Virus record (IMG/VR): IMGVR_UViG_3300032243_001028
Span: 32,001 to 96,000 of that record
Source of the DNA: a virus
Lineage: Duplodnaviria; Caudoviricetes
Length of the DNA: 64,000 bases
Reading direction: 5' to 3' (one strand)
Shown here: positions 8,783 to 55,916 of the stretch, piece after piece
How the letters are laid out: the number at the start of each line of letters is the position of its first letter
Numbering within the stretch: position 1 is the first letter of the stretch
The notes under the pieces: model-generated
Database searches by the model: none
The model's input: the letters and a program-made list of their open reading frames with translations, nothing else
Told to the model about the DNA's origin: nothing
Made by a program: the position numbers and the translations under genes

Positions 8783-8986
8783 ATGGACGAAAATAAAAAG
8801 TCTGAGGCCGAGCCTATGCTTACCATAGAGTCTTACAGAAATGATGAGCACATTGTTAAGAAAGTGCCGTACTCATCTCTATCGATTGAGCAATTAGTAA
8901 ATCTAACTTTAGAAGGCTCTAAAGCCGCCAACGAAGAGTTGCAACGCTTAATCGGAGTAGACATCCTTAAGGATGGCGGAGAATAG
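8783..8986 (+). CDS. Small hypothetical protein (67 aa)
   Basis: AGGA upstream; stop overlaps the GTG start of the 6251-aa gene (TAGTG). Confidence 0.7.
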   Translation: MDENKKSEAEPMLTIESYRNDEHIVKKVPYSSLSIEQLVNLTLEGSKAANEELQRLIGVDILKDGGE

Positions 8987-33004: not shown

Positions 33005-33112
33005 AGGTGGAGTGCCTTTACGTTTCTATGCGTAATAGTCCCTTTACCTTGAACCGATTAGCATGATGTTCAAAATATGACATCATCAACTGTCCTATTA
33101 AGGAGGAACAGT
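33005..33112 (+). promoter_or_regulatory. Structured 5' leader of the major capsid gene
   Basis: Stems AGGTGGAG/CTTTACCT (inner TTACG/CGTAA), ATGATGT/ACATCAT, and ACTGTCCT/AGGAACAGT covering the RBS and start. Confidence 0.45.
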
Positions 33113-41400: not shown

Positions 41401-44400
41401 ATGGCTGGTATAAATGAAGTTGGTAAAGCCAATGTTGTTGTAGGAGCTGATACTAAAAAAGCTGAAATCGATATTGAGAGATTTAGAAAAAGGCTAGAGC
41501 AAACTGGTCGTGGTTATGACAAACTTTTTAAAGAAGACATAACTAGAAAATTTTCTGAAAACTTTAGAAAAGGTTTTGAACAAGGAGTTCTTCGTGGAGT
41601 TCAAAAAGGTGAGAATCAGTTTTATCAACTTAACCGAGCCATAAACGTTGCTGCCACCTCTCTGCAAAAAATTAAAGGTCCTGCTGAAATGGCAGCAGAT
41701 CGTTTTATGAAATTGCAGCGCACCGGGCTTAAAATGCAAGCAGCTTTTGGAACTATAGCCGGAACCATTGGAGATCTAGCTGGAGGAATTTTAGGTCTTG
41801 TAGGAGTTCTTGGGGCAGCGGCTCCTGCAGCTGTAGCACTCGGTGGAGCTATGGCATCAGTTGGGGTTGGATTTGTTGGCGTAAAAGTTGCTATGTCAGG
41901 TGTGTCAAACGCTATTGGTGCAGTTTGGCAATCTCAAACTGCTTTAAATGATACATTTAGAGCTGCTACTCAAGAATATATTGGATTAAAGTTTGCTGCT
42001 GAGGAAGCCGCTCTATCCCAAGAAGATGCTGCACTTAAACTTGAAGTTGCTCGTGAAGCACTGGCACGCGTTCAAGATCTTCCACCGGATAACCGACTAC
42101 GTCGTCAGACAGAACTTGCTTTTAAAAATGCAGAATTAAATCTTCGTGAAACTAAGCACAAAAGTGAAGAAGCTTTTCGAGCCGTTAAAAAGGGTATTAC
42201 TGCTACAAGTGCGTATCAACCCTTGGCCGCTCTATCTGATGTACAACTACAGTTTGTAAAGTTTGTAGTTGCGCTTAGACCTCAAATGCAGACACTTAAA
42301 AAAGAAGTTGCTGCAGGGTTTATACCTAAACTTACAGAGTCAATAAATACTATTATGAAGCATGGCTTTCCTATATTTAAAACTGGACTAAAACAAGTTG
42401 CATCTGCAATGGGGGATGCTACTAAGACTTTTGCAAGTGCATTTAAAAATCCTCAAAATCTACAGCAACTAGCTGGTTTCTTTAAAAGCTCTACTGGAAT
42501 TATTCATAGTTTTGGAAGTGCTACTAAATCTTCATTTGGTATTTTAATAACTCTTCTTCATGCTGCTGAACCTATTACAAAACGTTTTGCTGATTGGGTA
42601 GATAAATATCTTGCAGGTCTTGATAAAAAAGTTAAAGTAGGTAGTTTTACCGGTAGCCTTCAGAGAATGTTTGCTCTTGCTGGAGACGTATCTGCACGTC
42701 TTGGAAAAGCATTTAGCACGGTATTTGATGGAATAAAAAATATTATTAAAGCAACTTTTCCTAGCGGTCCCAAGAGTGGTGCTGGTGGAGTTTTACTTGA
42801 TTTTATTGATAAGGTAACACAGGGGTTTGAAAAATTTACTGGAAGTAAATCATTTGCTTCGTGGCTTGAAAATTCTACTAAAGGTGCTGTAGCTGCTTTA
42901 ACTACTATTGGTAAATTTCTTGGTATTTTTGTTGATCTAGCTGGAAGTAAAGATACAAAAGCATTTTGGGACACTATACAACAAGCAATTCCTTACGTAA
43001 AAACTATACTTGAAAACGGTCAAGCAGTAGGTGTGCAAATTGCAGGTATTTTAGTTGACGTGGCTAAGATTTTAGCTGCTTTTGCAGATCAAGGTACGCT
43101 TGTTACATTCTTCAACTCTCTTAGAGTAATTTTTGATGCATTTGCTAATTTTGTAAATTCACCTATTGTAAAAACAATATTAGGATTCCTTGGAGCTTTG
43201 CATGGACCTATGCTTGCTCTTGGTGCAGTTTTTATATTAGGTAAAAAAGCTCTTGAAATATTTCTAGGTTATTTAGCTAAAGCTGCTAATATAATGGGGA
43301 CTACCACTATGAAGGCTAGGGCTGCCCAGCAAGCTCATCAAGCATTTGGTAGAGAAATGAAACTTGCTGGACTAGCAGGAGAGACATTCTGGCAAAAACT
43401 TAGAAGAGCTTCTGCAACAGCTAATAATCAAAAGCTTTTGGCAATGGGTAGAGAAGCTGGTTTTGCTAAAGATCGTCTAGCTCAACTAGAACTTCAAATG
43501 ATTTCTAACTCTAGAACTGCAACCCTATTTGATGAAACCACCCAAAAAAGCACTAACCTAATGGAGATGGATGCTAATCAAGCATTAGAGTTGGCTTTAA
43601 GAATTGAACAACTTGCAAAAGCTCAGGGCATGGATTCCGTTGCATTAAATAAATTAAATACGCAAATGTTAGAAAATATTACACTTGCTGGACAAGAAAA
43701 TATAACCAATCAAGGACTACTTAGGGGTACCGAGCTTGCAAATGGTGCGTATAAAGCTCCATTTGTAAACGCCAATGAAGCTGCTTACTATGGTCAACCT
43801 GGTACTAAAGGAGGTAATCCTAATTTAGTTCTTACCGGGGGTAGAGCCGGTTTTAAAGCCGTGGGAGCCGGTATAAAAGGTATGTTCGGTGGCATGGGTG
43901 GTGGAGGTGTTGCTGGTGGCTTAGGTATGGGAGCCATGGCAGTGAGCGGTTTAGTTGGCATGGGTACTGGTACCATGGGTCCAATTGGTATGGCTACTCA
44001 GGCTATTGGTGGAATTGCTTCCATGTTTGGGCCTGGCGGTATGGTTGTTGGTGGTCTGCTATCTGTTGGTGGAACTATTGTTGATGGAATTATAGCTGCG
44101 GAAAATGAACGTCAAAAAGGTATTAAAGAATTTAGAATTGCCGTTGCAAATATGTCGGTTGAAAGCTTAAATCAAGTTCAAGGATTTGCTGAAAAAGCTG
44201 TAGCTGCTGGATATGTAGGAACTAAAGCAGAGGGATCTGCTCTAGCTTCAAAATATGATGCAACTGCAAGTAGGGTTATTCCAAGCACTACCCACGAAAT
44301 TAGAGCAACGTATAGTAAAGATGCAACTAAGCAAGCTGCAGCTATGGACGAGGCATTGGCAGCATTTGCTTTATCTAATAAAAGAGCTTTTCAACTATCT

Positions 44401-45627
44401 CAAAGAAATGTAAATCAAGAAAACATTTTAAATTCAGTTGGAAGTATTGCGCAACATAGTACTTTAAGTACTACTGACATTGCAGGAGCTTTAGGGTCTC
44501 TATCCAGCATAACCGAAGATACTAAGGACGGTGTTCTACAAGGATTAGTTGGTGCTGGACTAGTTGGTAAAGGTAATCTTACAGATCTTAAAAAAGATCT
44601 TGGATATACTGATAAAGGTGTATTGACTAATGAATCATTTAATAAACTTTTAACAGATATAAAAAATATTAACAAATCTACGCCTACTACGCCTGGAGTA
44701 ACTCCTCCCCCTGGCAGTCTCCCTACTGCAGTTGCTCCAAATAAATTTATACCTTTAGGGTCAGTTCAACCTAATCCAAATATTTATGATTATAAAACTA
44801 TATATGGAACAAATGGGTATACTGCGGCTCAGTCTCAAGCGGCTAGAAACTTTAAATTAGCTCCAGCTACTTCAGGACTATTGCCTGACGCCATTGGAGA
44901 TTTGTCTACTCAAAGCTTCTTTAAACTAGATGCTAATAAAAATGTTACTGGTTTTAAGAGTCAAGAAGGACAGAATCAAGTTACAAATGCTATTTCTGAC
45001 TTATCTTATGCTCTTTCTGGAATAAGAGGCAGTATAACTAATGAATCAAGGGGTTATTATAAGTATGCTGGAAATATTTATAGTCCGTCTGAATTAGAAA
45101 AATTAAAAACAAAAAATCCAACAAGATACAACGCTATAAAAAAAGATCCTGATGCATTTCAACAAGAGCAGGGGTATAACGTATCCGGTAAGTTTTTCTC
45201 AACAGAATTATTTAATAGTGCTTTAAAGTCAATTAAAGTTAAAATCAATGGAAAAGATCTAAATGCTTATGATGCATTAGCTGGAACTACTACCCTAGCT
45301 AATATCGGTAAAATTGGAGAATTGACTAGCACCGGGAAAACTGGAAATCCTATCCTTGACGCGGCAAATAAAACGGATTCAGAGCAATTAAAAACTTTTA
45401 CAACAGCTAGTGATACGATGAAGACTAGTGCTGAAAGTTGGGGTAAGGCTGCTGCCAAATTTGAAGGCTATGGAGATCTTATTAAAGGTGAGACAAATAA
45501 AGCAATAGCGTTTGCTGTAGTTGCTGCTTCCACTGAAGGAAAGAAAGCAATAGCTGCTGGCGATACTGGAGCAATAAATAATCTAATACTGACTGAAATT
45601 AAAAAACTAAGGCTGAGTACTAAATAA
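41401..45627 (+). CDS. Tape measure protein
   Basis: AAGGAGGTGA RBS; 1408 aa, helical, Ala/Gly-rich with hydrophobic segments; position after chaperones. Confidence 0.9.
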   Translation: MAGINEVGKANVVVGADTKKAEIDIERFRKRLEQTGRGYDKLFKEDITRKFSENFRKGFEQGVLRGVQKGENQFYQLNRAINVAATSLQKIKGPAEMAADRFMKLQRTGLKMQAAFGTIAGTIGDLAGGILGLVGVLGAAAPAAVALGGAMASVGVGFVGVKVAMSGVSNAIGAVWQSQTALNDTFRAATQEYIGLKFAAEEAALSQEDAALKLEVAREALARVQDLPPDNRLRRQTELAFKNAELNLRETKHKSEEAFRAVKKGITATSAYQPLAALSDVQLQFVKFVVALRPQMQTLKKEVAAGFIPKLTESINTIMKHGFPIFKTGLKQVASAMGDATKTFASAFKNPQNLQQLAGFFKSSTGIIHSFGSATKSSFGILITLLHAAEPITKRFADWVDKYLAGLDKKVKVGSFTGSLQRMFALAGDVSARLGKAFSTVFDGIKNIIKATFPSGPKSGAGGVLLDFIDKVTQGFEKFTGSKSFASWLENSTKGAVAALTTIGKFLGIFVDLAGSKDTKAFWDTIQQAIPYVKTILENGQAVGVQIAGILVDVAKILAAFADQGTLVTFFNSLRVIFDAFANFVNSPIVKTILGFLGALHGPMLALGAVFILGKKALEIFLGYLAKAANIMGTTTMKARAAQQAHQAFGREMKLAGLAGETFWQKLRRASATANNQKLLAMGREAGFAKDRLAQLELQMISNSRTATLFDETTQKSTNLMEMDANQALELALRIEQLAKAQGMDSVALNKLNTQMLENITLAGQENITNQGLLRGTELANGAYKAPFVNANEAAYYGQPGTKGGNPNLVLTGGRAGFKAVGAGIKGMFGGMGGGGVAGGLGMGAMAVSGLVGMGTGTMGPIGMATQAIGGIASMFGPGGMVVGGLLSVGGTIVDGIIAAENERQKGIKEFRIAVANMSVESLNQVQGFAEKAVAAGYVGTKAEGSALASKYDATASRVIPSTTHEIRATYSKDATKQAAAMDEALAAFALSNKRAFQLSQRNVNQENILNSVGSIAQHSTLSTTDIAGALGSLSSITEDTKDGVLQGLVGAGLVGKGNLTDLKKDLGYTDKGVLTNESFNKLLTDIKNINKSTPTTPGVTPPPGSLPTAVAPNKFIPLGSVQPNPNIYDYKTIYGTNGYTAAQSQAARNFKLAPATSGLLPDAIGDLSTQSFFKLDANKNVTGFKSQEGQNQVTNAISDLSYALSGIRGSITNESRGYYKYAGNIYSPSELEKLKTKNPTRYNAIKKDPDAFQQEQGYNVSGKFFSTELFNSALKSIKVKINGKDLNAYDALAGTTTLANIGKIGELTSTGKTGNPILDAANKTDSEQLKTFTTASDTMKTSAESWGKAAAKFEGYGDLIKGETNKAIAFAVVAASTEGKKAIAAGDTGAINNLILTEIKKLRLSTK

Positions 45628-45689
45628 TGACACGTACAAACTTAATTCCTAAGGAGATCGCGAATGAATCGCGTAAATCTTGTAACTAA
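45627..45689 (+). pseudogene. Possible gene relic / mini-ORF MTRTNLIP... (20 aa)
   Basis: ATG overlaps the tape-measure stop (TAATG); first codons match the RTNL head motif of the next gene but are out of frame with it. Confidence 0.35.
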
Positions 45690-48600
45690 TCCGTCATTTA
45701 AGACGGACACCTCAGGCTGGACTACTGTCGGCACTGGAACATCATTTGTTCGTTCTACTACCGATGGATTTTACGGTAGCACATGCTTAGAAGTAACTAA
45801 GCCTGCTTTAAATTCAACTGGCGTGTCATGGACATCAGCTGCTACTCCTAACCTAGTTAGCAACTCAAGTTTTGAATCAGCTCCTAGCGATACTGTGAGT
45901 AGGACTAACTTACTAACAAACCCAAGTTTTGAAGCAGAAGCTAGTACGGTTGTTACTGCCAGAACTAACTTAGTGACTAATCCTGGTTTTGAAACATCAT
46001 CTAGCACAGCTACTATTCGTACTAATAGAATTCTTAATCCAAGATTTGAAGCAGCTCCTACTGTAACTACTAGCCGAATTAATTTACTTATAAATTCAAG
46101 TTTTGAAGCAACAACTGTTGAAACAACTGCTAGAACTAACTTATGTACAAACCCGAGTTTTGAGCACGCTACTACTCCCATTTCTGGATGGGCTGCTGTA
46201 AATGGTGCTAGTAGGGCAGCTTCAACTGCACAAAAAAACATTGGTGCTCAAAGTTTGCTTGTAACTTATGGTGCTGCAGCTGGAGCAACGTACACTGGAG
46301 TAGGTTATGCATTAACCCTTGCAGCATCTACTACATATACTTTTTCTGCATACGTATATACTCCAAGTGGATCTGTTTTTCCTCAGCTTAGCGTTCAATC
46401 ATCAGTGACTCCCGCATTTACAGCTGTTATTTCTTCAAATGCAACGTCAACAGGTGCTTGGCAGAGACTTTCAGTTACATTTACCACAACTGCTGCCGGT
46501 TCTTATACGTGTTATGTACTAAACAGTGCTGCAGTTACTGGAACAAAAACTTTCTATCTAGACAATGTTTTAATAGAACAGACAAGTATTCTTAAACCAT
46601 ATTTTGATGGTGCTACATCAGGAACTGGAACTGAATTTACTTACAACTGGACAAGTACTGCTCATCTAAGCACCAGTGAGCAAAAATATTTTAAAAATCC
46701 TACTTGGGGCTATATTAGGGCGTTATCTGGAATTGCCTCAACTGCACAATGCCTGTATGGAACTAAATCAGCTTTGCTTACTGCTGACGGCTCTCCTGGA
46801 GCTTTTGGTATGTATAACTCTGGTATCGGGAGTGCTCGTACTGCGGTCACTGCTGGATCAACTTACACTTCTTCTATCTATGTTCGTGATATAAATACTG
46901 CAGTTTCTTATTATGCGGCTATTGAATGGTATAACAGCAGTGGTGGTAGCGCTGGTGCTACTTCAACTGGAACAGTGACAGCAGTTAATTCTTCAGGCTG
47001 GACCCGCATAAGTGTTTCAGCAGCTGCACCTACCGAAGCTGTTACGGCAGTACCTACTTTCTACTCAAATACTGCCCCAGCAAGCGGTACACAGGTATAT
47101 TTTGATGGTGCTCTTTTTGATTTTTCTGCTGAAGTTAGGCCATATTTTGACGGAGATACCGCCGCTGCTAATGAATTTACCTACTCCTGGTCTGGCACTG
47201 CTCATGCAAGTACTAGCCTTCAAAAGTTTAATGCTGCACCTAGCTACTCATTCGATTCATTAAAAGGCGTTGTTGCTAGAAGCTCTGCAACATCTCCTTT
47301 TGTAGGTACTTATAGCGGTTTAGTAACAAGCCTCAGCAGCTTTGGTACTCTTGGTACTTATTCTTCAAACTCAACTGTTACTGCTGGAACTACTTATGTT
47401 GGTTCTATTTATGTTAAAGATTTGAGCCTTGGTAGAACTATCCAAGTAAACATAGATTGGCGTGGCAGTGGGGGCTATATAAGTAGTAGTAGTGGTACTG
47501 CAACAGCTATTTCTACCGGTTCATGGACAAGAATTAGCGTTACTGGAGTTGCTCCATCGGGAGCAACAGGTGCTTCACTTGTATTAGCTGTTCCTTCAAC
47601 CGCCCCATATGGTTCACAATTTTACATAGATGCTGCCTTACTTGAAGCAGGCTCTTACGTCAATACTTACTTTGATGGATCAACTACTGCTACAGGTGAT
47701 TTTACTCACGCTTGGACTGGAACTGCTGACGCTTCATCTAGTAATCAAGTTGCAAATATGGTTGATGGTTGGAGCAATGTATATAATCCAGAAGGGTTGT
47801 CATACGGATTTTATCGAACTAATGCAGATAAACAAAATGGCTCTTACTCAATGGCTTTGGCTATGTATCAAGGAACAGGTGCTAATCCAATTAATCTTGG
47901 TACACCAATCCTTAGTGCAATTACGGCTAGCAAGACCTATACATCTTCCATTTATGTCTACACTAATCGAACACAAAACATTAACTTTGTGTTTACAGTT
48001 ACTACTGCTGCTGGTTCTACTTACCCAGGTGTAGTGACTTCTGTACCGGGTGGAACTTGGACTAGAATAAATTATACGTACACTATGCCTTCCAATTTGG
48101 TTAGTTCTACTGTACAAATTCAACCAAGTGCTCCAAAAAGCGGTGACTATTTCTACTTTGATCAATTTTTGTTAGAAGAATCTAGTATTTTAAAATCTTA
48201 TTTTGATGGCAGTACAGCAGCAGCAGGTGAATTTACTTATTCCTGGTCCGGCACTGCTAATGCTTCAACTAGCATCCAACAATATTCTATTAGCTCTACT
48301 TGGGGATCTATTGGATCATTATCTGCTATCACCTCAACTGCACAGTATTTATATGGGGCTAAATCTACACTAGCTACTGCCGATGGTTCTGGAACTTTTG
48401 GTATCTATAACTCGGGTGTGTCTTCTGCTCGTACTGCAGTCACTGCTGGTAAATCCTACACTTCTTCTATTTATGTTAAAGACATCGATACTGGAGTTTC
48501 ATACTATGCAGGTATTGAATGGAAAGATAGCGGTGGTAGTAGCGCGGGCGCTACTTCAACCGGAACAGTCACGGCAGTTAATTCTTCAGGCTGGACCCGC

Positions 48601-50988
48601 ATAAGTGTAACTGCTACCGCACCTACCGGAGCCGTTACAGCAATTCCTACTTTTTATTCTGGGACTACCCCCGCAAGCGGAAAACAAGTGTATTTTGATG
48701 GTGCTCTTTTTGAACAAGCAAGTGAGATTAAACCATATTTTGATGGGAATATTGCTAGTGCTAATGAATTTACTTATGCTTGGTCCGGTACTGCTCATAT
48801 AAGTACAAGCTTAGAAAAATATTCTAAGGTTCCAAGCTGGGCAGGAGATGTGAACTCTGTAATTGCTAGAAGTTCTGTAACAAGTTATATTGGTACATAC
48901 AGTGGTTTAGTTACTAGCACTAATAGCTCTAGTAAATTAGGTTTATTCATTATTACTGGTACTTCGGTAACTCCTGGAAAAGCTTATAGTGCATCTATTT
49001 ATGCTAAAGATTTAAATCTTGGAATGACAGTTAGAGTTGAAATTCATTGGTATAACGGAAGTTCTTATATAACTAACTCGACTAGCGCTTATACAAGTAT
49101 TTCAACCACTGATTGGACAAAGTTAAGTGTAACTGGGACAGCTCCTACAAATGCAACTCTTGGCTATATAGTTGTAAATAGTTCATCAAATGCTCCATTT
49201 GGAAAACAAATCTATGTTGACGCTGCTGTACTTGAACAAAGTTCTGTACCTACTTCTTATTTTAACGGAACAGCTGTAGCAACTAAAGCTGGAACAACTT
49301 ATGCTGCATCTTTATACGTAAAAATTCCAGTCGGGCAAGAAACTTCTTCATTTAAAATATATCTTTATTGGTATGATTTTACTGGTACTCAGATCTCGTT
49401 TACTTCCAGCGCGTTAGTAACTGTAACTAGTGACGATGGTTGGGTTCGTTTAGGTGTGGCTAGTACTGCTCCTACAAATGCTGTTATTGGAGAAGTTAGA
49501 TTAGATCAACCTACCGCTGGAACTAGTGGGAAAAAATTCTTAGTTGATGCTGTATTGCTAGAAGAATCTAGCTATTATGGTCAGTATTTTGATGATTTTA
49601 CTCAAGATCAAGAGACCACTAAAGTCAATAATGCATTGCGTCGTGTCCCGCCCCCTCACCTTACAGGTATGCAGCTCAATGCGGATATTAATATTAATGG
49701 GCTAATACTTAACACTATTGATGAAAATAACGTTGTTTGGGTCTGCACTGATATTAAAAATTGGTGGGCTCTACCTGAACCTGAAGTTCCAGATATTGGA
49801 CGTGGATTGGATGATGGTTCATACGATGTTCGTGGACGTTGGAAAGCTAGAGCCATAACTCTTGAAGGATCTATTCTTCCTCCAGATGTAGGTTCTATGG
49901 TTGCTGCAAGATCTAAACTGATCGCTGCTCTTTCTCCTCTAGTATATTCAGGTGGAATTTTAGCTGTAGATGAGGGACCTATAAAAGTTTCTAAAGTATT
50001 TATGGTTGGGCAGCCTAACATGGAAGTAAAAAATGCACGTGGACGTATAGATTTCAGTGTTCAACTTAGATCTGGAGATCCTGTTAAATATGAATGGAAC
50101 TATCAAGCTACTGATGGTTACTTTTCTGTTACGCCTTTTTCATATAAAACTTCTGGATCTATCTCAAACGTCTCCCAAGGACTTGGAATTCGTAGGTATT
50201 ACGCAACTAATACTTTTGTTGTGGGGGATTACGTAACTATTTCAGGAGTAAGTCCATCAGGATATAATACAGAATCTACTTCTCCATTAGCTATTACTGC
50301 AGTGGATCCTAATGGAGCTTGGTTCGAAGTGTCTGGAACTTCTTCCGGTGCTTACGTTTCTGAAACGAATAGTTCTGCAAAATTAGCTTACTCAAATACA
50401 AGCATAACTAACTCAGGTAATACTTCTGTTCCTACTATTATAACTATTACTGGACCTATATCTAGTGGTAGCTACATAAAAAATACAACTAATAATACTT
50501 CTATGAAATTAGTTAAACAAATGAGAGCGGCTTCATATTTTGTAAATATTGGATATGTTTCTAGGTATGGAAATGTAGCTACTCTAACTACTACAAACTC
50601 TACTGGCCATGGATTATTTGTGGGGGATGTTGTTAATATATCTATTTCTAGCGATCCTGGATCTTTTAGCGCTAGTTCTGTAACTATTACTTCAACTACT
50701 ACAAATACTTTTACTTATGATTCAGCTGGATCTGATGTATCACTTACCTCTGTTGCTGGTTCTACCACTACTTTGGTATCTGCCGATATTGCTGTAATAG
50801 ATACATATAATCAAACTGTAAAATATCGCGGTATAGCTGATGCTGGACGTTCTATTTTAGATGCAAATATAGATTGGTTGAAACTAGTTCCGGGATCTAA
50901 TAATATTCAAGTTCAAACGGGAGATAGTTCAGTATTAGCATCTGATAGCAAAGTAGTAGTCCAATACCGTTCCGGCTGGATCGGTTAG
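45664..50988 (+). CDS. Distal tail (Dit-like) protein with seven N-terminal carbohydrate-binding-like domains
   Basis: First large gene after tape measure. NL.TNPSFE and [FY].D...LE motifs of CBM4/9-like galactose-binding folds. C-terminal Dit-like core (W....W...P, R.ITLEG, F.VQL...DP.KY, N.GN...P, W..L.PG.N, YRSGW). Confidence 0.8.
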   Translation: MNRVNLVTNPSFKTDTSGWTTVGTGTSFVRSTTDGFYGSTCLEVTKPALNSTGVSWTSAATPNLVSNSSFESAPSDTVSRTNLLTNPSFEAEASTVVTARTNLVTNPGFETSSSTATIRTNRILNPRFEAAPTVTTSRINLLINSSFEATTVETTARTNLCTNPSFEHATTPISGWAAVNGASRAASTAQKNIGAQSLLVTYGAAAGATYTGVGYALTLAASTTYTFSAYVYTPSGSVFPQLSVQSSVTPAFTAVISSNATSTGAWQRLSVTFTTTAAGSYTCYVLNSAAVTGTKTFYLDNVLIEQTSILKPYFDGATSGTGTEFTYNWTSTAHLSTSEQKYFKNPTWGYIRALSGIASTAQCLYGTKSALLTADGSPGAFGMYNSGIGSARTAVTAGSTYTSSIYVRDINTAVSYYAAIEWYNSSGGSAGATSTGTVTAVNSSGWTRISVSAAAPTEAVTAVPTFYSNTAPASGTQVYFDGALFDFSAEVRPYFDGDTAAANEFTYSWSGTAHASTSLQKFNAAPSYSFDSLKGVVARSSATSPFVGTYSGLVTSLSSFGTLGTYSSNSTVTAGTTYVGSIYVKDLSLGRTIQVNIDWRGSGGYISSSSGTATAISTGSWTRISVTGVAPSGATGASLVLAVPSTAPYGSQFYIDAALLEAGSYVNTYFDGSTTATGDFTHAWTGTADASSSNQVANMVDGWSNVYNPEGLSYGFYRTNADKQNGSYSMALAMYQGTGANPINLGTPILSAITASKTYTSSIYVYTNRTQNINFVFTVTTAAGSTYPGVVTSVPGGTWTRINYTYTMPSNLVSSTVQIQPSAPKSGDYFYFDQFLLEESSILKSYFDGSTAAAGEFTYSWSGTANASTSIQQYSISSTWGSIGSLSAITSTAQYLYGAKSTLATADGSGTFGIYNSGVSSARTAVTAGKSYTSSIYVKDIDTGVSYYAGIEWKDSGGSSAGATSTGTVTAVNSSGWTRISVTATAPTGAVTAIPTFYSGTTPASGKQVYFDGALFEQASEIKPYFDGNIASANEFTYAWSGTAHISTSLEKYSKVPSWAGDVNSVIARSSVTSYIGTYSGLVTSTNSSSKLGLFIITGTSVTPGKAYSASIYAKDLNLGMTVRVEIHWYNGSSYITNSTSAYTSISTTDWTKLSVTGTAPTNATLGYIVVNSSSNAPFGKQIYVDAAVLEQSSVPTSYFNGTAVATKAGTTYAASLYVKIPVGQETSSFKIYLYWYDFTGTQISFTSSALVTVTSDDGWVRLGVASTAPTNAVIGEVRLDQPTAGTSGKKFLVDAVLLEESSYYGQYFDDFTQDQETTKVNNALRRVPPPHLTGMQLNADININGLILNTIDENNVVWVCTDIKNWWALPEPEVPDIGRGLDDGSYDVRGRWKARAITLEGSILPPDVGSMVAARSKLIAALSPLVYSGGILAVDEGPIKVSKVFMVGQPNMEVKNARGRIDFSVQLRSGDPVKYEWNYQATDGYFSVTPFSYKTSGSISNVSQGLGIRRYYATNTFVVGDYVTISGVSPSGYNTESTSPLAITAVDPNGAWFEVSGTSSGAYVSETNSSAKLAYSNTSITNSGNTSVPTIITITGPISSGSYIKNTTNNTSMKLVKQMRAASYFVNIGYVSRYGNVATLTTTNSTGHGLFVGDVVNISISSDPGSFSASSVTITSTTTNTFTYDSAGSDVSLTSVAGSTTTLVSADIAVIDTYNQTVKYRGIADAGRSILDANIDWLKLVPGSNNIQVQTGDSSVLASDSKVVVQYRSGWIG
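46981..48608 (+). repeat. Internal duplication within the Dit-like gene (35-bp identical stretch at 46981-47015 and 48574-48608)
   Basis: gcagttaattcttcaggctggacccgcataagtgt occurs twice, within two near-identical ~180-aa domain bodies. Confidence 0.85.
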
Positions 50989-51020: not shown

Positions 51021-54000
51021 ATGACAGAAGCATATCCAATAGGTACGTCTGCTACAGCAGCTAAGTACACCTACTACGCTGTTGATATTGTATCTAACAA
51101 AATTCTTGCTCAAATCCCTTTTGAAGACGTTATTTATGAAAGAACTTTAAAGGGTGCTGGTTCATTTGATGGCAAAATTTCTATTAACAAGCAGACTAAA
51201 GATCTTGATTTATACAACTCCACTCTCCCTGGAAAATGCGCTCTATACGTTGTTCGTAATGGCGTTTGTATGTGGGGCGGTATTATTTGGGGTAGAACCT
51301 ATGATCTTTTTGGAAGGTCTTTAAACGTCACTGCTTCGGAGTTTACTAGCTATTTAAAACATCGTATTATTTGGAAAACATATTCATATCAATTTACAGC
51401 TGTAGTAAATAAAACTTCAAAAAAACTACCAGCTAAAGTTGTTTTACAAAATACTAGTAATATAAATTTAAAAATACCTATTAAAGTTTTAGATGATTAC
51501 GGAAATTTAAATCGAGTATATGTTAGCTTTACTAGATCTGATTTAATTAAATATAATGGGTACTACCCACTGTCTCCGTCTGTCACTCCTACAACAACTG
51601 TATTTTATATAACTATTCCAGATCTTCCAGCAGAAAAATATACTGATGTAAGTATTTCTATACGAGTGGATACTTATGAATACTTAAAAGAATTAATGAA
51701 AGAAGCTGCTCAGGATTTTGTAGATAGTAAATTTGCTAATGAGGTTATCACTCCAGGAATAAGGATTCCGTATCAAATTACAAATAAATCTGCTGATGGA
51801 GGTATTGTAACTCTTACCACATCTACTACGCATGATCTGGTTCCAGGGCAAAATGTAGAAATACGAAATGTAGATGAAAATGTTGACGGCGTACGTTTAG
51901 TTTCAGAAACTCCTAGTAGTAATACTTTTAGGGTAATTGTTCCTGCTTACAATATAAAAACTCTATCTGCTAGCGCAAATACTGCAACAGTTACCGTTGA
52001 TGTAGGCGATACAAACGACATATTTAAACTTACTGTAGGTAGTAGAGTAACAATTGCTGATGCTCCAACCTTTGGTGGATATAACTATTTTAATTTTTCA
52101 AACGTTAAAATACTTAGTGTATCAAATAACAATACTTTTACCTATGAAATAGTTAATCCTAGAGGAACCATAGCTATTTCAAATGCTACATCAACTGATT
52201 CTTTAATCACATACACTGCAACAAATACTTTATCCGTTGGAGACTATGTAACCGTAAAAAATTCAAACAACTCGAGCTACAATGTGGTAAATAAAATTGT
52301 AACTTATGCAGATAGTACTAAATTTATAATAGCTAATCCTCTTAATTCAGCAATTTCTGGAAAATATTCTCCTTATACAGCCACTGCGTATGCTGGAATA
52401 AATACTATTTCTGGGGTTCCTGGAGTTGTTTCTCAGATATCTATTCCGCCAACTAACATATACACTAATAAATATGAGGTAGCTACTAGAGCTTTAAAAC
52501 CTACTAAACCATATGGAGTAGTTTCAGCTAAACGATCTTATAATTCTGATAAAAGTCTTTTTATAGTAACTCTTCAACTAGGTAAATCTAGCTCTAAAAC
52601 TTTTACTTTTCTTAAAGGAGATACTATAACTACAAGTTTGGCTGGAGATACTACTAAAGATGCTAATAAAAATCTTATGTACACTGCCTTAACTAATGGT
52701 GATGGGGGAGGAGTTGTTCTTACAGCAGTAGACAAAGTGAAAAAAACTGTTTCATATGAACTTACTGGAGTAGCTACTAAAAAAGATGACGATACTTACA
52801 TATCAGAGCAAACAACTTTTACTACATTATCTGGCACAAATACCATAAACTATGCAACTGCAACAACTGAAGTTGAAATTGGTATTTCAGAAGAAGCTCC
52901 TCTTAGAAAAGATATGTATGTTTATGTTACCGGTGTAGATGGGGTTAGTTGGAGTCAACCACTCTATAACGGTTTTCAACAGATAACTGATACCTCTGTT
53001 ATAGACTCGGAAACTGGATCTATTAGTACAAAAATTACAAAATATGCTACAGAGGCTGGAGTAGCTACTTTATACACTAGTAAAAATAATAGTTTTGTTA
53101 ATGATCAGATGGTTACTATTGCTGGATTTGCTGGATCTTTGAGTTATTTAAACGGAGTATTTAAAATAATAGATTCAATACAAGGATCTTTAGATGGAGA
53201 AAGTTATTTTACTTATTATATAGATGATAATGCTTCTATAGCTAGAACGGTTGCGGATAATGGAGTAACGGGCAGAGTTAAAGGTCAAAACGTATTTAGA
53301 TACAAACTACCAGAATATGGTCCTATAAATGAACCGGATGGTAAATATGCTGTAACTTCATATAGAATAGGTGGCTACGCTAGCGATGCAACTGATAAAA
53401 GATCAACGGTTAGAATAAAAACTCAAGAAAAAATTAAGTTTAATCCTGGAGATTCTGTAGATATAGCTATTGGAGTAGATGCAACCGATGGATCTTATAA
53501 AGTTGGATCTGTTTCTCCGTCAAGAGATTCTTTTACATATAAAATTCCAGCAAGCAAATCTTCCGTGTCTAAATCTACAGATAGTACATACAAAACTATC
53601 ACCGGTACTGTATCTAGAACTTCTGCTCAATTAGATCAACAAAGTTTAAAGTACCAACCTACAATTTCTGCTATGAGCTGCGAAAGCAATGTAGTTACAG
53701 TTAGAAGTGTTAATCATCAATTTAATGCCGATGATTCTATTAGTTTAATATTTCCATCAGCTTTTCAAGATTATGATAATAATGGATTTAAAGTTATTAT
53801 TCAATCTGCAGATAAAGATACTTTTACATATTCTTTAACTAATTTTAGAGATGGAGTTACAACTGCAGCAGATGCAGGAGTTGTTTCAATATCTAAATAT
53901 AAATTTACAAAAAATACTGCAAATAATACATCTGGAACTATAAGATATACAACAACTGACGAACACTACTACACGGTTGGATCTAAGGTTACAGTTACAA

Positions 54001-55916
54001 AAATAAATAAAAATCCTACTGGAACTGCTTTTGCACAAAGTCTTACTTGGAGTAGTGTGTATGTAATCACTGAAGTAAATGATTTAGCAGATTCAGTTAA
54101 ATATTTTGAAGTATCTGTGACAAATTTAACTAATGCAGCGGACATAACCGAGCAGACTTTAGCTTCTAATTTATACGGTAAAGCAGTTTCTACTGCAATG
54201 ATGATTTCAAAAGCTAAAGCTCTTACTAGTGGATCTGCTTCTTCGACTCAAATAACTTACACTGGAACTAACTTACCTTTTGTAGCTGATGAAACGCTTA
54301 CTGTTGTTGGATTTACTGGTACTGGATCTACTAGAATAAATAGTAAAGGTAAAATAACTTCTACAGCTGGTACTCCCACTACTTCAGTAAAAATTGACGT
54401 AGCAGGGACTGTTGTATCTCCTGCTATCACTTCTGGAAAACCTTTTGGGTATGTTAGATCATATGCTAGTGCTCTTTTGGATTACTCAGAGTCTATTACT
54501 GCACAAACTGTTTATGGCATTTCTGCTGTTGCTAGTACAAAAACTATAACTTTATATTGTCCAGACCATGGATTTGTTGATCAGGATGTAATAAAATTAG
54601 TACTTCCAAATAACTATAAAAATTATTATCCATCTGATGATAAACCAGTTACAATTTCAAAAATAGATAATTCTACTTTTAGCTATAAAGTTACTAATAC
54701 CATAAGTAACATTGCTATGTCAGAAACTATTACAGATATAGGTACTAACTCTGGAACTGTTAGATTTACAGCTAATAATAGTTTTTCTGCAGGTCAAAAA
54801 ATAACTATAAAAGGTGTGATCCCTGACGTTTATAACTTTACGTCAGCCACTGTAACTAATGCTACTGCAACATATTTTGAAATTGCTAGTACGGAAACAG
54901 CGAGTTATGAAGCATCTAATGGTGTAGCTATGCAAGCACTAAGCCCTACTGGAACAGCAGTAGAAGCTCCTTATGTAGCTATTACTCCAGTTGTACTCTC
55001 TAGAACTTACGGAGAGTTTCCAAAAAATACTAATATTGGTGGGCTTGATTTCGATGGCACTACATATAGCGGTAATTTCTATCCAAATACTATTGTTCGT
55101 GGTAGTGATATGGTAACTCTTGATGCTCATATGGAACAGTATAGTAATTCCGTAAATGGGTTTAATTATAGGATAGACTGTACTTTAAATAATTCCGGGG
55201 GGGAAAGTATGTTTAAACGTAAATTTGTTTTAGTTCCTATTACTCCTGCTACGCTTAAAGAATATTTAAATACTCAGCCAGGGGGAGTTCTTCCTGTAGG
55301 TAAAGTAGCTCCACCATATGCTTTTGGTGCAGATAAAATTACATTTGAGCATCCTGGAAATGTGGAAAATGTAAGTTTTAGTGAAAGTGCTGAAAATGCT
55401 GCCACAAGAATGTTTGTATCTGGTAATAATGGTGCAGGAGATCCAAACTCTGTAGCAAGATTCTCTGGAGCTGCCGATAATGATCTTCTTGAAGCTGGAT
55501 GGCCTATTTTAGATAGGGCAGAGAAAATTGATTGGCCTACTCAGTACAATCCTCTAGTTATAACTGTTAATAGGGATAATTGGGGTAACTATGATGCCGA
55601 GGCAGATTTTTATGCAACAGCTAAAAGATTTTTATATCAGTCTAGGCCCCCTCAAGGAGACTTTGTAATTAGAGTTAATGGCTCTTTACCGCCTGTAATT
55701 GGATCTTATAATCCCGGAGATTGGTGCCAATTAATAGTTGATGATGAAGCTGGATTTATTAATAGTAGATTAGCTAGTGTATTAGAACCTAGAAAAGACG
55801 TTATTCTTAGAAGGATTGATAACATTAAAATATCTGTTCCAAATAGCCCTGCATTCCCGGAAGAGATTGATTTAACTCTAGTGACAGACTGGGAGGTGGA
55901 CAGAATTGGCAAATAG
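51021..55916 (+). CDS. Minor tail / baseplate hub (Tal-like) protein with about a dozen inserted beta domains
   Basis: GAGG RBS. N-terminal hub motifs (Y...D......A.IP, L..AG.F.G, RNG...WGGIIW.R) and C-terminal F..PGN, GWP.LD, P.IGSY.PGD flank repeated T.TT...H....G..V.I....NG units. Confidence 0.75.
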   Translation: MTEAYPIGTSATAAKYTYYAVDIVSNKILAQIPFEDVIYERTLKGAGSFDGKISINKQTKDLDLYNSTLPGKCALYVVRNGVCMWGGIIWGRTYDLFGRSLNVTASEFTSYLKHRIIWKTYSYQFTAVVNKTSKKLPAKVVLQNTSNINLKIPIKVLDDYGNLNRVYVSFTRSDLIKYNGYYPLSPSVTPTTTVFYITIPDLPAEKYTDVSISIRVDTYEYLKELMKEAAQDFVDSKFANEVITPGIRIPYQITNKSADGGIVTLTTSTTHDLVPGQNVEIRNVDENVDGVRLVSETPSSNTFRVIVPAYNIKTLSASANTATVTVDVGDTNDIFKLTVGSRVTIADAPTFGGYNYFNFSNVKILSVSNNNTFTYEIVNPRGTIAISNATSTDSLITYTATNTLSVGDYVTVKNSNNSSYNVVNKIVTYADSTKFIIANPLNSAISGKYSPYTATAYAGINTISGVPGVVSQISIPPTNIYTNKYEVATRALKPTKPYGVVSAKRSYNSDKSLFIVTLQLGKSSSKTFTFLKGDTITTSLAGDTTKDANKNLMYTALTNGDGGGVVLTAVDKVKKTVSYELTGVATKKDDDTYISEQTTFTTLSGTNTINYATATTEVEIGISEEAPLRKDMYVYVTGVDGVSWSQPLYNGFQQITDTSVIDSETGSISTKITKYATEAGVATLYTSKNNSFVNDQMVTIAGFAGSLSYLNGVFKIIDSIQGSLDGESYFTYYIDDNASIARTVADNGVTGRVKGQNVFRYKLPEYGPINEPDGKYAVTSYRIGGYASDATDKRSTVRIKTQEKIKFNPGDSVDIAIGVDATDGSYKVGSVSPSRDSFTYKIPASKSSVSKSTDSTYKTITGTVSRTSAQLDQQSLKYQPTISAMSCESNVVTVRSVNHQFNADDSISLIFPSAFQDYDNNGFKVIIQSADKDTFTYSLTNFRDGVTTAADAGVVSISKYKFTKNTANNTSGTIRYTTTDEHYYTVGSKVTVTKINKNPTGTAFAQSLTWSSVYVITEVNDLADSVKYFEVSVTNLTNAADITEQTLASNLYGKAVSTAMMISKAKALTSGSASSTQITYTGTNLPFVADETLTVVGFTGTGSTRINSKGKITSTAGTPTTSVKIDVAGTVVSPAITSGKPFGYVRSYASALLDYSESITAQTVYGISAVASTKTITLYCPDHGFVDQDVIKLVLPNNYKNYYPSDDKPVTISKIDNSTFSYKVTNTISNIAMSETITDIGTNSGTVRFTANNSFSAGQKITIKGVIPDVYNFTSATVTNATATYFEIASTETASYEASNGVAMQALSPTGTAVEAPYVAITPVVLSRTYGEFPKNTNIGGLDFDGTTYSGNFYPNTIVRGSDMVTLDAHMEQYSNSVNGFNYRIDCTLNNSGGESMFKRKFVLVPITPATLKEYLNTQPGGVLPVGKVAPPYAFGADKITFEHPGNVENVSFSESAENAATRMFVSGNNGAGDPNSVARFSGAADNDLLEAGWPILDRAEKIDWPTQYNPLVITVNRDNWGNYDAEADFYATAKRFLYQSRPPQGDFVIRVNGSLPPVIGSYNPGDWCQLIVDDEAGFINSRLASVLEPRKDVILRRIDNIKISVPNSPAFPEEIDLTLVTDWEVDRIGK

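Follow-up and report, generated by a model that had tools for sequence, protein, structure and literature searches.

The open reading frame at positions 45664..50988 on the + strand of the window (the whole stretch of 64,000 nucleotides that was analysed) very probably encodes a distal tail protein (Dit) with an N-terminal arm of seven recursively nested CBM_4_9/CBM22-like domains. Domain 1 would be interrupted after its first strands by aa 63-1202, and domains 2 to 6 would each be interrupted just after the first strand by the next domain, leaving only domain 7 contiguous. On its way out the chain would form a ladder whose first strands (NLxxNPxFE) are linked by connectors of 10-11 residues; it would then turn in domain 7 and return through six bodies, with a 'YFDG...FTYxWxGTAxxSxS' return linker crossing each of the five junctions between returning bodies. 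Serial insertion, with the chain going out and back, had been proposed in a first-pass annotation; it is supported at level 1 by relatives and at levels 4 to 7 by predicted structures.

Identification of the Dit gene

The genome of this siphophage is complete (135,096 bp). The 1774-aa ORF, referred to below as P0001, directly follows a 1408-aa tape-measure-like ORF (41401..45627), which is the position of a Dit gene, and precedes a 1631-aa ORF (51021..55916). Genes for the portal, major head, major tail, adaptor and tail completion proteins lie further upstream. The order of tape measure, Dit and next gene is common to this locus, the loci L023 to L026 and phage A3Wally. PHROG phrog_33 ('distal tail protein Dit') matched the protein with an E-value of 7.9e-24, the best stretch being aa 1332-1640, and the Pfam SPP1_Dit C-terminal domain was located at aa 1682-1771 with 22.4 bits, under its cut-off of 25. 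The Dit part had no match at E <= 0.1 among solved-structure (PDB) sequences. The G+C content of the gene is low (about 38-41%). Judged from these sequence matches, the ORF is a siphophage Dit, with the C-terminal third as its putative ring-forming part. Dit proteins normally assemble into a hexameric ring at the end of the tail, between tail tube and tail tip, and by analogy with the family the arm-bearing Dit is presumably a hexamer as well. The gene and its parts are as follows.

45664..50988, + strand: whole gene, 1774-aa distal tail protein with N-terminal nested domain array (ORF call)
45664..45849, + strand: domain 1, N-terminal half (aa 1-62), head 1 and following strands (alignment to L023 and L025)
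45850..46137, + strand: five orphan heads, h2 to h6 (aa 63-158; head motif)
46138..46611, + strand: domain 7 (aa 159-316), innermost, sole contiguous head and body (Pfam CBM_4_9; CBM22 1h6x match)
46612..46695, + strand: return linker R7-6 (aa 317-344), FTYNWTSTAHLSTS (motif; two modelled strands)
46696..47154, + strand: headless body 6 (aa 345-497; body HMM; VIA rows joining h6)
47155..47235, + strand: return linker R6-5 (aa 498-524; motif, model)
47236..47679, + strand: headless body 5 (aa 525-672; CBM_4_9; VIA rows joining h5)
47680..47760, + strand: return linker R5-4 (aa 673-699; motif, model)
47761..48210, + strand: headless body 4 (aa 700-849; CBM_4_9; VIA rows joining h4)
48211..48291, + strand: return linker R4-3 (aa 850-876; motif)
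48292..48747, + strand: headless body 3 (aa 877-1028; body HMM, 75% identity to body 6; putative pairing with h3)
48748..48828, + strand: return linker R3-2 (aa 1029-1055; motif)
48829..49269, + strand: headless body 2 (aa 1056-1202; CBM_4_9, 49% identity to body 5; putative pairing with h2)
49270..49596, + strand: domain 1, C-terminal half (aa 1203-1311; body HMM positions 43-145; A3Wally, L023 and L025 alignments)
49597..50985, + strand: Dit proper (aa 1312-1774; phrog_33; SPP1_Dit below cut-off; ~70% identical to L023)

Heads, bodies and return linkers

The head pattern occurs seven times in the protein, with the first N at nt 45676, 45850, 45907, 45967, 46024, 46081 and 46138 (aa 5, 63, 82, 102, 121, 140 and 159), and the heads are thus spaced 58, 19, 20, 19, 19 and 19 aa apart. 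Across 2000 shuffles of its residues, the pattern appeared 0.0005 times on average and at most once. The seven stacked heads of the first-pass annotation are therefore real in number, far above the shuffle expectation, whereas heads 3 to 7 had been placed 6 nt upstream (with the preceding 'RT' included) and 45664 is the ORF start. Each of h2 to h6 consists of NLxxNxxFE and a 10-11-aa connector ending in (T/S)R(T/I). A six-frame translation of the whole window revealed a single extra head at 56671, in the next-but-one ORF, with no Pfam match within the surrounding 220 aa.

An iterated body HMM located seven bodies, exactly as claimed, at aa 174-316, 353-497, 536-672, 711-849, 879-1028, 1058-1202 and 1204-1310, the last being partial and covering only HMM positions 43-145. 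The body profile hit seven places in the whole 135-kb genome, all of them within this gene. Domain-closing YFD/YFN motifs were found at aa 313, 494, 669, 846, 1025, 1199 and 1308, and YF[DN][GD] occurs 9 times compared to 0.04 in shuffles. The body-end expression proposed earlier fits five of the seven bodies; the first has I in place of L/F, and the last reads FLVD. The return linker 'FTYxWxGTAxxSxS', which had been folded into the body types, is present in five copies (aa 325, 505, 680, 857 and 1036; none in shuffles). In total, aa 1-1311 contain seven heads, as many CBM_4_9-like bodies and five return linkers.

We scanned the domains singly with Pfam CBM_4_9 (PF02018; gathering cut-off 25.9 bits). 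Domain 7 (E 3.7e-12, 47.2 bits, profile 2-120 from residue 1), body 2 (E 4e-8, 34.1 bits, residues 3-119 on profile 16-132) and body 4 (E 1.4e-7, 32.3 bits, residues 23-122 on profile 29-131) scored above the cut-off and are members by this measure. Body 5 (E 1e-4, 23.1 bits, residues 15-120 on profile 27-132) and body 3 (16.8 bits, alignment from profile position 35) fell below it; body 6 and the two halves of domain 1 gave no match when scanned alone, and the whole protein gave none at E <= 0.01. Relatives carry precomputed PF02018 annotation. The body profile also found the CBM22 chain of C. thermocellum Xyn10B (2w5f, E 0.0011), and phmmer of domain 7 against PDB sequences returned nothing at E <= 1. 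Five bodies start at about profile position 14-35 and thus are without the first strand, and it is because this strand is displaced that domain finders partly miss the nested layout. In CBM_4_9 modules, aromatic and polar residues line a cleft in which carbohydrate is bound, and by analogy the arm domains may bind it in this way too.

Block repeats

The heads and bodies had been typed a, b and c with a period of three. This typing is borne out by bodies 6 and 3 (75% identity) and bodies 5 and 2 (49%), but not by domain 7 and body 4, whose 31% identity falls inside the background of the other 18 body pairs (23-39%). The likeness of the latter two is confined to the final ~30 residues and the linker; block similarity sets in no earlier than about aa 285/819, within the last strands of domain 7 and body 4. 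The DNA repeats in the gene are 1593-1599 nt apart. Nesting depth seems to have grown at least partly through duplication of a head block and a body block.

Such a highly repetitive region in a metagenome-derived virus genome record could in principle be an artefact of assembly or gene calling, i.e., a collapsed or chimeric repeat region. We consider this extremely unlikely, as the frame is open across 1774 codons, the repeats have diverged (49-75% protein identity) rather than being identical copies, stacked heads also follow a likewise split N-terminal half in an independent relative with 51% identity (P0010), and cultured phages such as Arthrobacter phage Mimi (gp188) share the grammar.

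Domain 1 is uninterrupted in relatives

The last body had been predicted to complete the half-domain begun at the N-terminus, and the same domain is indeed uninterrupted in relatives (L023, L025 and A3Wally gp98). The N-terminal domain is unbroken in four metagenome loci with the same order of tape measure, Dit and next gene; where the gene is complete (two loci), it encodes a Dit of about 650 aa, and two of the four are ~70% identical to P0001 in the Dit part. In L023 and L025, the opening stretch of the uninterrupted domain shares 47% and 44% identity, respectively, with the N-terminal half of domain 1, and the second half of that domain shares 32-33% with the C-terminal half. The same Dit occurs in Microbacterium phage A3Wally (gp98), where its single CBM-like domain is unbroken. 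Residues 2-53 of gp98 aligned with aa 3-54 of P0001 and its residues 59-200 with aa 1205-1344 (38% identity, E 3e-28), placing the break exactly at aa 54/1205. These alignments were made with BLASTP because global MAFFT scattered the single domain of short relatives over paralogous bodies. Since the N-terminal domain of the closest relatives is uninterrupted, aa 63-1202 represent an insertion into domain 1.

When the two halves of domain 1 were folded as separate chains, they gave an ipSAE of 0.60 (best of three controls, 0.00), with partner pLDDT of at least 73 and contact agreement of at least 88%. Of 80 solved complexes, 58 attained the ipSAE mark, as did 2 of 110 mismatched pairs; only 7 of the 80 solved complexes, but both mismatches that reached the mark, stood at 0.60 or less, and the two-chain fold weakly suggests that the halves pair. 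A passing ipSAE for halves of one fold may stem from likeness to solved structures.

Predicted structures and pairing of heads with bodies

Two AlphaFold2 models were obtained, model 1 for aa 111-699 (mean pLDDT 85.7, pTM 0.73, head blocks 88-90) and model 2 for aa 63-1202 (mean pLDDT 74.6). Heads h3 to h6 were modelled with pLDDT of 79-90 and the connectors as strands. DSSP assigned the strand in model 1 to the connector before each head, and NLxxNPxFE itself is not a strand; the return linker R7-6 contains two strands in this model (E216-219 and E228-234). In model 2, body 3 has a pLDDT of about 73-89 and level 3 is confidently modelled, and level 2 (h2 and b2) falls below a pLDDT of 50 for a large part of its length. 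The input alignments were filtered by hand for colinearity: rows of '(DD)' proteins, which aligned head 6 with body 5, and mis-registered rows were dropped, and the final sets held 14 (A6) and 17 (A8) rows. Alignments with whole multi-domain relatives were often mis-registered. Filtering for colinearity might favour a colinear solution.

Pairing was read solely from the first and last aligned residues of VIA-align matches to PDB chains. Solved single CBM chains of 137-167 residues aligned over nested model ranges, with Z of 13-16.5, rmsd of 2.0-3.0 and 136-153 aligned residues. In model 1, three rows spanned 8-10..553, joining h5 with b5 (4bj0_A, Z 15.4, rmsd 2.6, 153/166 aligned), four spanned 26-29..376-379, joining h6 with b6 (e.g., 1wky, Z 14.2), and forty covered domain 7 at about 44-54..196-236, including CBM22 1h6x (Z 16.5, rmsd 2.4, 148/159 aligned, model range 45..202). 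The other 3 of the 50 rows were two multi-domain matches with rmsd above 13 and one with rmsd 4.4 that spanned the whole model (1..589). Model 2 gave 21, 10, 2 and 14 rows for levels 4, 5, 6 and 7 in a first search and 11, 12, 4 and 19 in a second, plus three and four multi-domain rows with high rmsd, respectively. Here h4 was joined with b4 (35-40..777-801, e.g., 1h6x, Z 16.3, rmsd 2.4, 151 aligned), h5 with b5 (55-61..599-604) and h6 with b6 (74..427). Level 3 had no row in either search of model 2.

Between them, the two models therefore pair head n with body n in reverse order at levels 4, 5, 6 and 7, as the first-pass annotation had anticipated. At levels 2 and 3 the same pairing is suggested by layout and paralogy in the sequence. 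The modelled domains superpose on solved CBM22, CBM4 and CBM16 modules, which is consistent, for predicted models, with a CBM_4_9 beta-sandwich. Insertion of one domain into another of the same fold is thus indicated at level 1 by the uninterrupted relatives and at levels 4 to 7 by the nested aligned ranges.

The counts and the period-3 typing would fit equally well if heads complemented bodies in forward order, or if strands were swapped with neighbouring Dit subunits, to which monomer predictions are blind; relatives with unbalanced numbers of heads and bodies also hint at strands donated in trans. However, forward-order pairing, named beforehand as an outcome that would speak against nesting, appeared in none of the 47, 47 and 46 single-domain VIA rows (the first 47 including the whole-model row 1..589). 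Furthermore, the heads are only 19-20 aa apart, so head 6 must adjoin domain 7, as body 6 does, while forward order would put it at body 2, five domains off. We regard forward or swapped complementation as highly improbable.

Layouts among relatives

Relatives with a different nesting depth were found, the bracket-like layouts reaching depths of six to eight heads. Heads were scored with a position weight matrix (733 at a score of at least 7, compared to 10 in shuffles); a looser regular expression was rejected for its many false heads. Among the best 150 of 2024 matches, 125 had orphan heads or headless bodies, and 307 of 340 intervals between orphan heads measured 19 or 20 aa. In 57 of the 125 layouts there were as many orphan heads as headless bodies, and all 57 formed well-formed bracket strings, as against 19.2 expected in random order; 10,000 permutations of the counts reached 34 at most and never 57. 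Bracket order was violated in 18 of the 125, ten of which begin with a truncated body, and 11 had surplus heads. Two candidate tests were discarded: the count of return linkers against orphan heads, since the linker also precedes head-bearing domains (bodies were classed as headed or headless instead), and pairing order in P0010, which lacks an h6-like head and a b6-like body and fits forward order too.

Searches for DNA loci returned 12 and 8 loci in viral contigs, 4 in metagenomes and 4 in genomes, and none of the 4 genome loci found had the nested layout. Matches by tblastn came from 86 phage records, with actinobacterial hosts throughout, and the top BFVD fold matches were 'minor tail proteins' of actinobacteriophages. 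Mimi gp188 has five orphan heads, an innermost domain and five headless bodies.

Some layouts are clearly unbalanced. P0068 and P0141 have at least six orphan heads and zero headless bodies, and P0078, P0080 and P0086 have two to five headless bodies, zero orphan heads and N-termini that look genuine; pairing is therefore not obligatory in the family, and a body is possible without a head. Such proteins would be expected if heads were an independent beta-rich spacer repeat and 'headless' bodies were complete, taking their first strand from the S.S.Q... piece of the preceding return linker. The occurrence of this linker before head-bearing domains in many relatives and the location of the DSSP strand in the connector point the same way. 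However, single solved CBMs align across a head and its distant body in both models, the heads are modelled at pLDDT 79-90, the bodies begin at Pfam profile position 16-35, and 57 of 125 relatives combine equal counts with correct bracket order, compared to a permutation maximum of 34. An independent spacer repeat is thus very unlikely, and nesting remains the preferred reading.

The unbalanced layouts also allow a broader proposal, which we consider unlikely: head and body could form a general grammar of strand complementation, acting in cis here and by donation in trans, between ring subunits or tail proteins, in relatives with surplus heads or surplus bodies. Assembly of this donor-strand-complementation type is not known in phage tails. 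A strand swap between neighbouring Dit subunits is compatible with the monomer models even for P0001.

Possible function and comparison with known systems

Because each junction between neighbouring domains would be crossed by an outgoing strand and a returning hairpin, the arm may be stiffer than beads on a single string, and 'rigid' and 'stalk' are plausible descriptions of it. Six copies of Dit would place 42 lectin-like modules around the tail tip. By analogy with CBM-bearing 'evolved' Dits, these could bind host cell-wall glycans with high avidity in initial adsorption.

If true, this is a second natural case of deep recursive same-fold nesting, viral and in a different fold, comprising seven domains through six levels of insertion; only one further case was found in print, the six-level nesting of RNA polymerase Si3 (PMC13114784). 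Nor would it stand alone, as bracket-like layouts are seen in numerous actinobacteriophage tail proteins whose sole annotation is 'minor tail protein', and with the grammar in hand these can be parsed, counted and modelled correctly. It would suggest that duplication of head blocks and of body blocks is how phages lengthen or stiffen their receptor-binding arms, with bearing on host-range evolution and on the design of rigid multi-domain scaffolds. The open-access literature searched held no description of nested CBMs in phage tail or adhesion proteins; tail proteins of related phages commonly have this layout, which seems to be undescribed.

The actinobacteriophage homologues, annotated only as minor tail or hypothetical proteins, are 26-38% identical to P0001. 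Mimi gp188 shares its nested layout and A3Wally gp98 is the same Dit, whereas P0001 has low G+C and comes from an uncultured virus. The evoDit of siphophages of Gram-positive bacteria is likewise a Dit decorated with CBMs that are taken to aid adsorption. According to PMC11741397, an evoDit has its CBM inserted within the C-terminal galectin-like domain. In P0001, however, seven modules, all from a single family, occupy aa 1-1311, N-terminal to the Dit match (aa 1332-1771) and outside the galectin domain, and the insertions are of one module into another and not into the Dit fold. P0001 may therefore work like an evoDit while lying outside that definition.

The modelled domains match the folds of CBM22 (1h6x, 1dyo), CBM4-2 (4bj0, 2y6j) and CBM16 (2zew) with Z of 15-16.5. 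The CBMs of known enzymes are contiguous and in tandem, as in 4xup (CBM22-1-CBM22-2), which aligned to the P0001 model only at an rmsd above 13; six of the seven domains of P0001 are discontinuous. The closest parallel in architecture is Si3 of the cyanobacterial RNA polymerase beta' subunit, in which nested SBHM domains form 'six-level nested structures' (PMC13114784). Si3 shares with P0001 the recursive same-fold insertion and an elongated multi-domain arm, but the fold (SBHM as opposed to CBM jelly roll), the protein and the biology differ. In P0001, moreover, the insertion point is constant (after strand 1), the head unit is fixed at 19-20 aa and the return linker is conserved, so that the layout reads as a bracket grammar.

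Genomic setting of the P0001 gene

The virus record (135,096 bp, with direct terminal repeats) is rated 100% complete and contributes its bases 32001-96000 to the window. This region is a siphophage structural module, with the following genes.

28432-32967: portal-containing ORF, 1511 aa; aa 776-1187 match a portal-protein PHROG
33111-35159: major head protein, 682 aa
36400-38265: major tail protein, 621 aa; only aa 7-180 match a PHROG
Same module, before the ORF in the tape measure position: head-tail adaptor and tail completion protein
41401..45627: ORF in the tape measure position, 1408 aa
45664..50988 (+): P0001 gene, 1774 aa, after the ORF in the tape measure position
Downstream of the P0001 gene: two more large ORFs, 1631 aa and 1757 aa

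The 28432-32967 ORF is a portal-containing fusion of unusual length, and its aa 776-1187 also hit families annotated as head maturation protease and as virion structural protein. The major head and major tail proteins lie far above the usual length, which suggests decoration domains. Two giant ORFs were also seen, one at 1-8550 (2849 aa or more, running off the window start) with RNase_T exonuclease, UvrD helicase, ArdC N-terminal and MPTase-PolyVal zincin domains in Pfam, and one at 8986-27741 (6251 aa) with RNase_T and GNAT acetyltransferase matches; presumably both resemble the "polyvalent proteins" of phages and conjugative elements.

In P0001, aa 1332-1640 matched the distal tail protein (Dit) in PHROGs (E 7.9e-24), and the SPP1_Dit C-terminal domain was found at aa 1682-1771 with a sub-threshold Pfam score. 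The nested array thus comprises the 1311 residues N-terminal to Dit.

Heads, bodies and return linkers

The first-pass annotation had read the array as seven first-strand heads (NLxxNPxFE) followed by seven bodies, the remainders of the domains, and this anatomy was confirmed. The head pattern occurs at aa 5, 63, 82, 102, 121, 140 and 159, and the domain ends (YFD or YFN) lie at aa 313, 494, 669, 846, 1025, 1199 and 1308. Residue shuffles gave a mean of 0.0005 head patterns against the 7 observed, and 0.04 end motifs of the YFD/YFN type against 9. An element that had not been separated before, the return linker FTYxWxGTAxxSxS, is present in five copies between successive bodies and in none of the shuffles of P0001. 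An iterated body HMM recovered six full bodies and one partial body at aa 1204-1310, which covers HMM positions 43-145 only. In a profile search of the whole 135,096-bp genome, the seven body sites were all in the P0001 gene. A lone head motif (NLVKNPSFE) was seen at 56671, aa 256 of the 1757-aa ORF (55906-61179) two genes downstream, with no body by the body HMM and no Pfam match in the surrounding 220 aa.

All five bodies after the first start at a "GW" that follows the head in the complete domain. The contiguous innermost domain (D7), scanned alone, aligned with Pfam CBM_4_9 from profile position 2 (47.2 bits), and the alignments of headless bodies scanned alone started at position 16 to 35; what these bodies lack is therefore the family profile's first strand. 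Of the six full-length domains, five gave a CBM_4_9 match when scanned alone (D7 and the headless bodies b5, b4, b3 and b2), three of them above the cut-off, with b4 and b2 each above the gathering score. The whole of P0001 gave no CBM_4_9 match at E 0.01 or better, and domains in nested layouts can escape routine annotation.

Most of the array is inserted into domain 1

The last body had been proposed to complete the half-domain at the N-terminus, and relatives with an uninterrupted domain bear this out. Four metagenome loci share the gene order of P0001, and each has an uninterrupted N-terminal domain (~aa 6-170); Dit has ~650 aa in the two that contain the complete gene, and two of the four are ~70% identical to P0001 over the Dit part. 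Gp98 of Microbacterium phage A3Wally has the same build, its residues 2-53 matching P0001 3-54 and its residues 59-200 matching P0001 1205-1344 by BLASTP (38% identity, E 3e-28 for the latter). Relative to the corresponding halves in loci L023 and L025, the first half of domain 1 is 44-47% and the second 32-33% identical. Since the domain is whole in these relatives and both P0001 halves match it, domain 1 is interrupted here by an insertion, aa 63-1202.

The two halves of domain 1 were also folded as separate chains. The ipSAE was 0.60 (best of three controls 0.00). Of 80 solved complexes, 58 reached the mark set for this score, as did 2 of 110 mismatched pairs, although among those reaching it just 7 of the 80 solved complexes, plus both mismatches, had values of 0.60 or below. 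The partner chains had a pLDDT of 73 or more, and contacts agreed to 88% or more. Halves of a common fold may pass such a test through resemblance to solved structures, and the two-chain prediction lends weak support to the pairing of the domain-1 halves.

Relatives show bracket-like layouts

When the full library was searched with aa 63-520, 2024 matches reached E 0.001 or better, and the best 150 were written in a code where "(" is an orphan head, "D" a head with its body, and ")" a headless body after a return linker. Among these best 150 of 2024, 125 contained "(" or ")". The two counts were equal in 57 proteins of this set, and all 57 were well-formed bracket strings, compared with 19.2 expected from random order; when counts were permuted among proteins, 57 or more equalities arose in none of 10,000 trials (maximum 34). 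Equal-count layouts included (DD) in 11 proteins, (D) in 4, ((D)) in 3 and ((((D)))) in 3, as well as complex ones such as ((((D)D)D)). Still among the best 150, a further 39 had a head surplus no larger than their own number of ambiguous bodies, 11 had surplus heads without explanation, and 18 violated the bracket order, 10 of which start with a truncated body. The distance from an orphan head to the next head was 19 or 20 aa in 307 of 340 cases in the same 150 proteins.

Relatives with other nesting depths, a search for which had been proposed, were found. Runs of 6-8 open heads occurred in 18 and a run of 10 in one of the best 150 proteins, so P0001 is not the deepest. P0010, a protein 51% identical to P0001 that ends at a contig edge, has the same split first domain and only three orphan heads compared to five in P0001; nesting depth thus differs between close relatives. 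Gp188 of the cultured Arthrobacter phage Mimi has five orphan heads; the head of its innermost domain is degenerate, and two complete domains are scattered among the five headless bodies of its return part. After its first body, Mimi gp188 (L001 3959-9277) carries a ~140-aa segment that separates the YFDG end from the return linker, showing that other modules can enter the return path of the nest.

Some relatives were unbalanced. P0068 and P0141 are strings of "(D" units that include no headless body, and P0078, P0080 and P0086 have 2-5 headless bodies each and zero orphan heads, with N-termini (M, 11 residues, NL) that appear genuine. Heads and bodies can therefore occur unpaired. These layouts may be evolutionary intermediates, because duplication of a head only would give "(D" and duplication of a body with its linker "D)". 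Alternatively, the first strand may be dispensable; complementation in trans is a third possibility.

Predicted structures pair heads and bodies in reverse order

Two AlphaFold2 models were calculated, and pairing was deduced from the model residue ranges covered by solved single-domain CBMs (VIA-align). The input alignments were hand-filtered for colinearity, and an identical alignment would also be right under forward pairing; still, a small bias might come from the "(D)" proteins whose rows were placed at the inner level. Model 1 (aa 111-699; heads 5, 6, 7 and bodies 7, 6, 5) used the register-checked 14-row alignment A6 and reached a mean pLDDT of 85.7 (heads 88-90) and a pTM of 0.73. In 40 of its 50 VIA rows the range was ~44-54..196-236, the contiguous D7, as with the CBM22 structure 1h6x (Z 16.5, rmsd 2.4, 148/159 residues). 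Three rows (4bj0_A, 2y6j and 5w6h_A) spanned 8-10..553, i.e., head 5 with body 5, among them CBM4-2 (4bj0_A; Z 15.4, rmsd 2.6, 153/166). A chain of ~166 residues aligning 153 within residues 10-553 must use both the head and the distant body. Four rows spanned 26-29..376-379, head 6 with body 6 (1wky, Z 14.2; 8iqe_A, 8iq9_A and 8iq5_D, Z 13.1-14.0). The other three comprised two multi-domain rows (rmsd >13) and 9b45_1, whose range 1..589 is the entire model (172 aligned, rmsd 4.4).

Model 2 (aa 63-1202; checked 17-row alignment A8) had a mean pLDDT of 74.6 and a pTM of 0.54, with pLDDT below 50 at residues 1-15 (head 2) and much of 993-1140 (body 2). Two VIA searches matched head 4 with body 4 (35-40..777-801; e.g., 1h6x, Z 16.3, rmsd 2.4, 151 aligned), head 5 with body 5 (55-61..599-635), head 6 with body 6 (74-76..427-464) and D7. 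Rows for levels 4/5/6/7 numbered 21/10/2/14 and 11/12/4/19, besides 3 and 4 multi-domain rows (rmsd >14). Level 3 gave no VIA row in model 2, though head 3 and body 3 had pLDDT ~73-89.

In none of the three VIA tables did a row span a forward-order pair (head 5 and body 6, for example). The expected reverse pairing of head n with body n was thus found for levels 5-7 in both models and for level 4 in model 2. Head spacing agrees with the nested order as well, since heads 19-20 aa apart require head 6 to adjoin D7, as body 6 does. The core of the nesting reading is therefore supported, at level 1 by comparison with relatives and at levels 4-7 by two predicted models; for levels 2-3 in P0001 we infer the same pairing.

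In both models, DSSP assigned a strand to the connector directly before each head (TVxVRT) and a pair of strands to every return linker (TYxW and S.Q....). In these predictions, one outgoing and two returning strands would span each inter-domain junction. A nested arm, with stiffness, hexamer context and glycan binding as putative parts, is probably the explanation.

Probable block duplication within the array

The domains had been assigned to three alternating types. This holds for bodies b6/b3 (75% identity) and b5/b2 (49%) but not for D7/b4 (31%, background level), and in the heads the period of three is present but weaker. Duplication of an entire three-domain nest, as had been proposed, does not fit, because likeness begins only within the last strands of D7 and b4 (~aa 285/819) and continues from there through linker, body, linker and body. 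DNA repeats within the gene are spaced 1593-1599 nt apart. The repeat pattern fits a duplicated head block plus a duplicated body block.

Comparison with known systems

Full-text searches of openly available main texts turned up no account of nested CBMs in the tail proteins of phages. In the available portions of mycobacteriophage cryo-EM papers, the word "nested" is absent and nested CBMs are not described. Evolved Dits are reported to carry CBMs inserted in the galectin domain of Dit (PMC11741397), whereas the modules of P0001 precede Dit and are inserted into one another. Recursive nesting of one fold also occurs in the Si3 insertion of cyanobacterial RNA polymerase, where a solved structure shows SBHM-2 to -5 each assembled from chain segments that lie far apart (PMC10895346). 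A survey of 48,551 insertion events names "six-level nested structures" as the extreme (PMC13114784). Recursive domain insertion is thus already known, and what appears to be new here is its occurrence in a CBM-bearing Dit.
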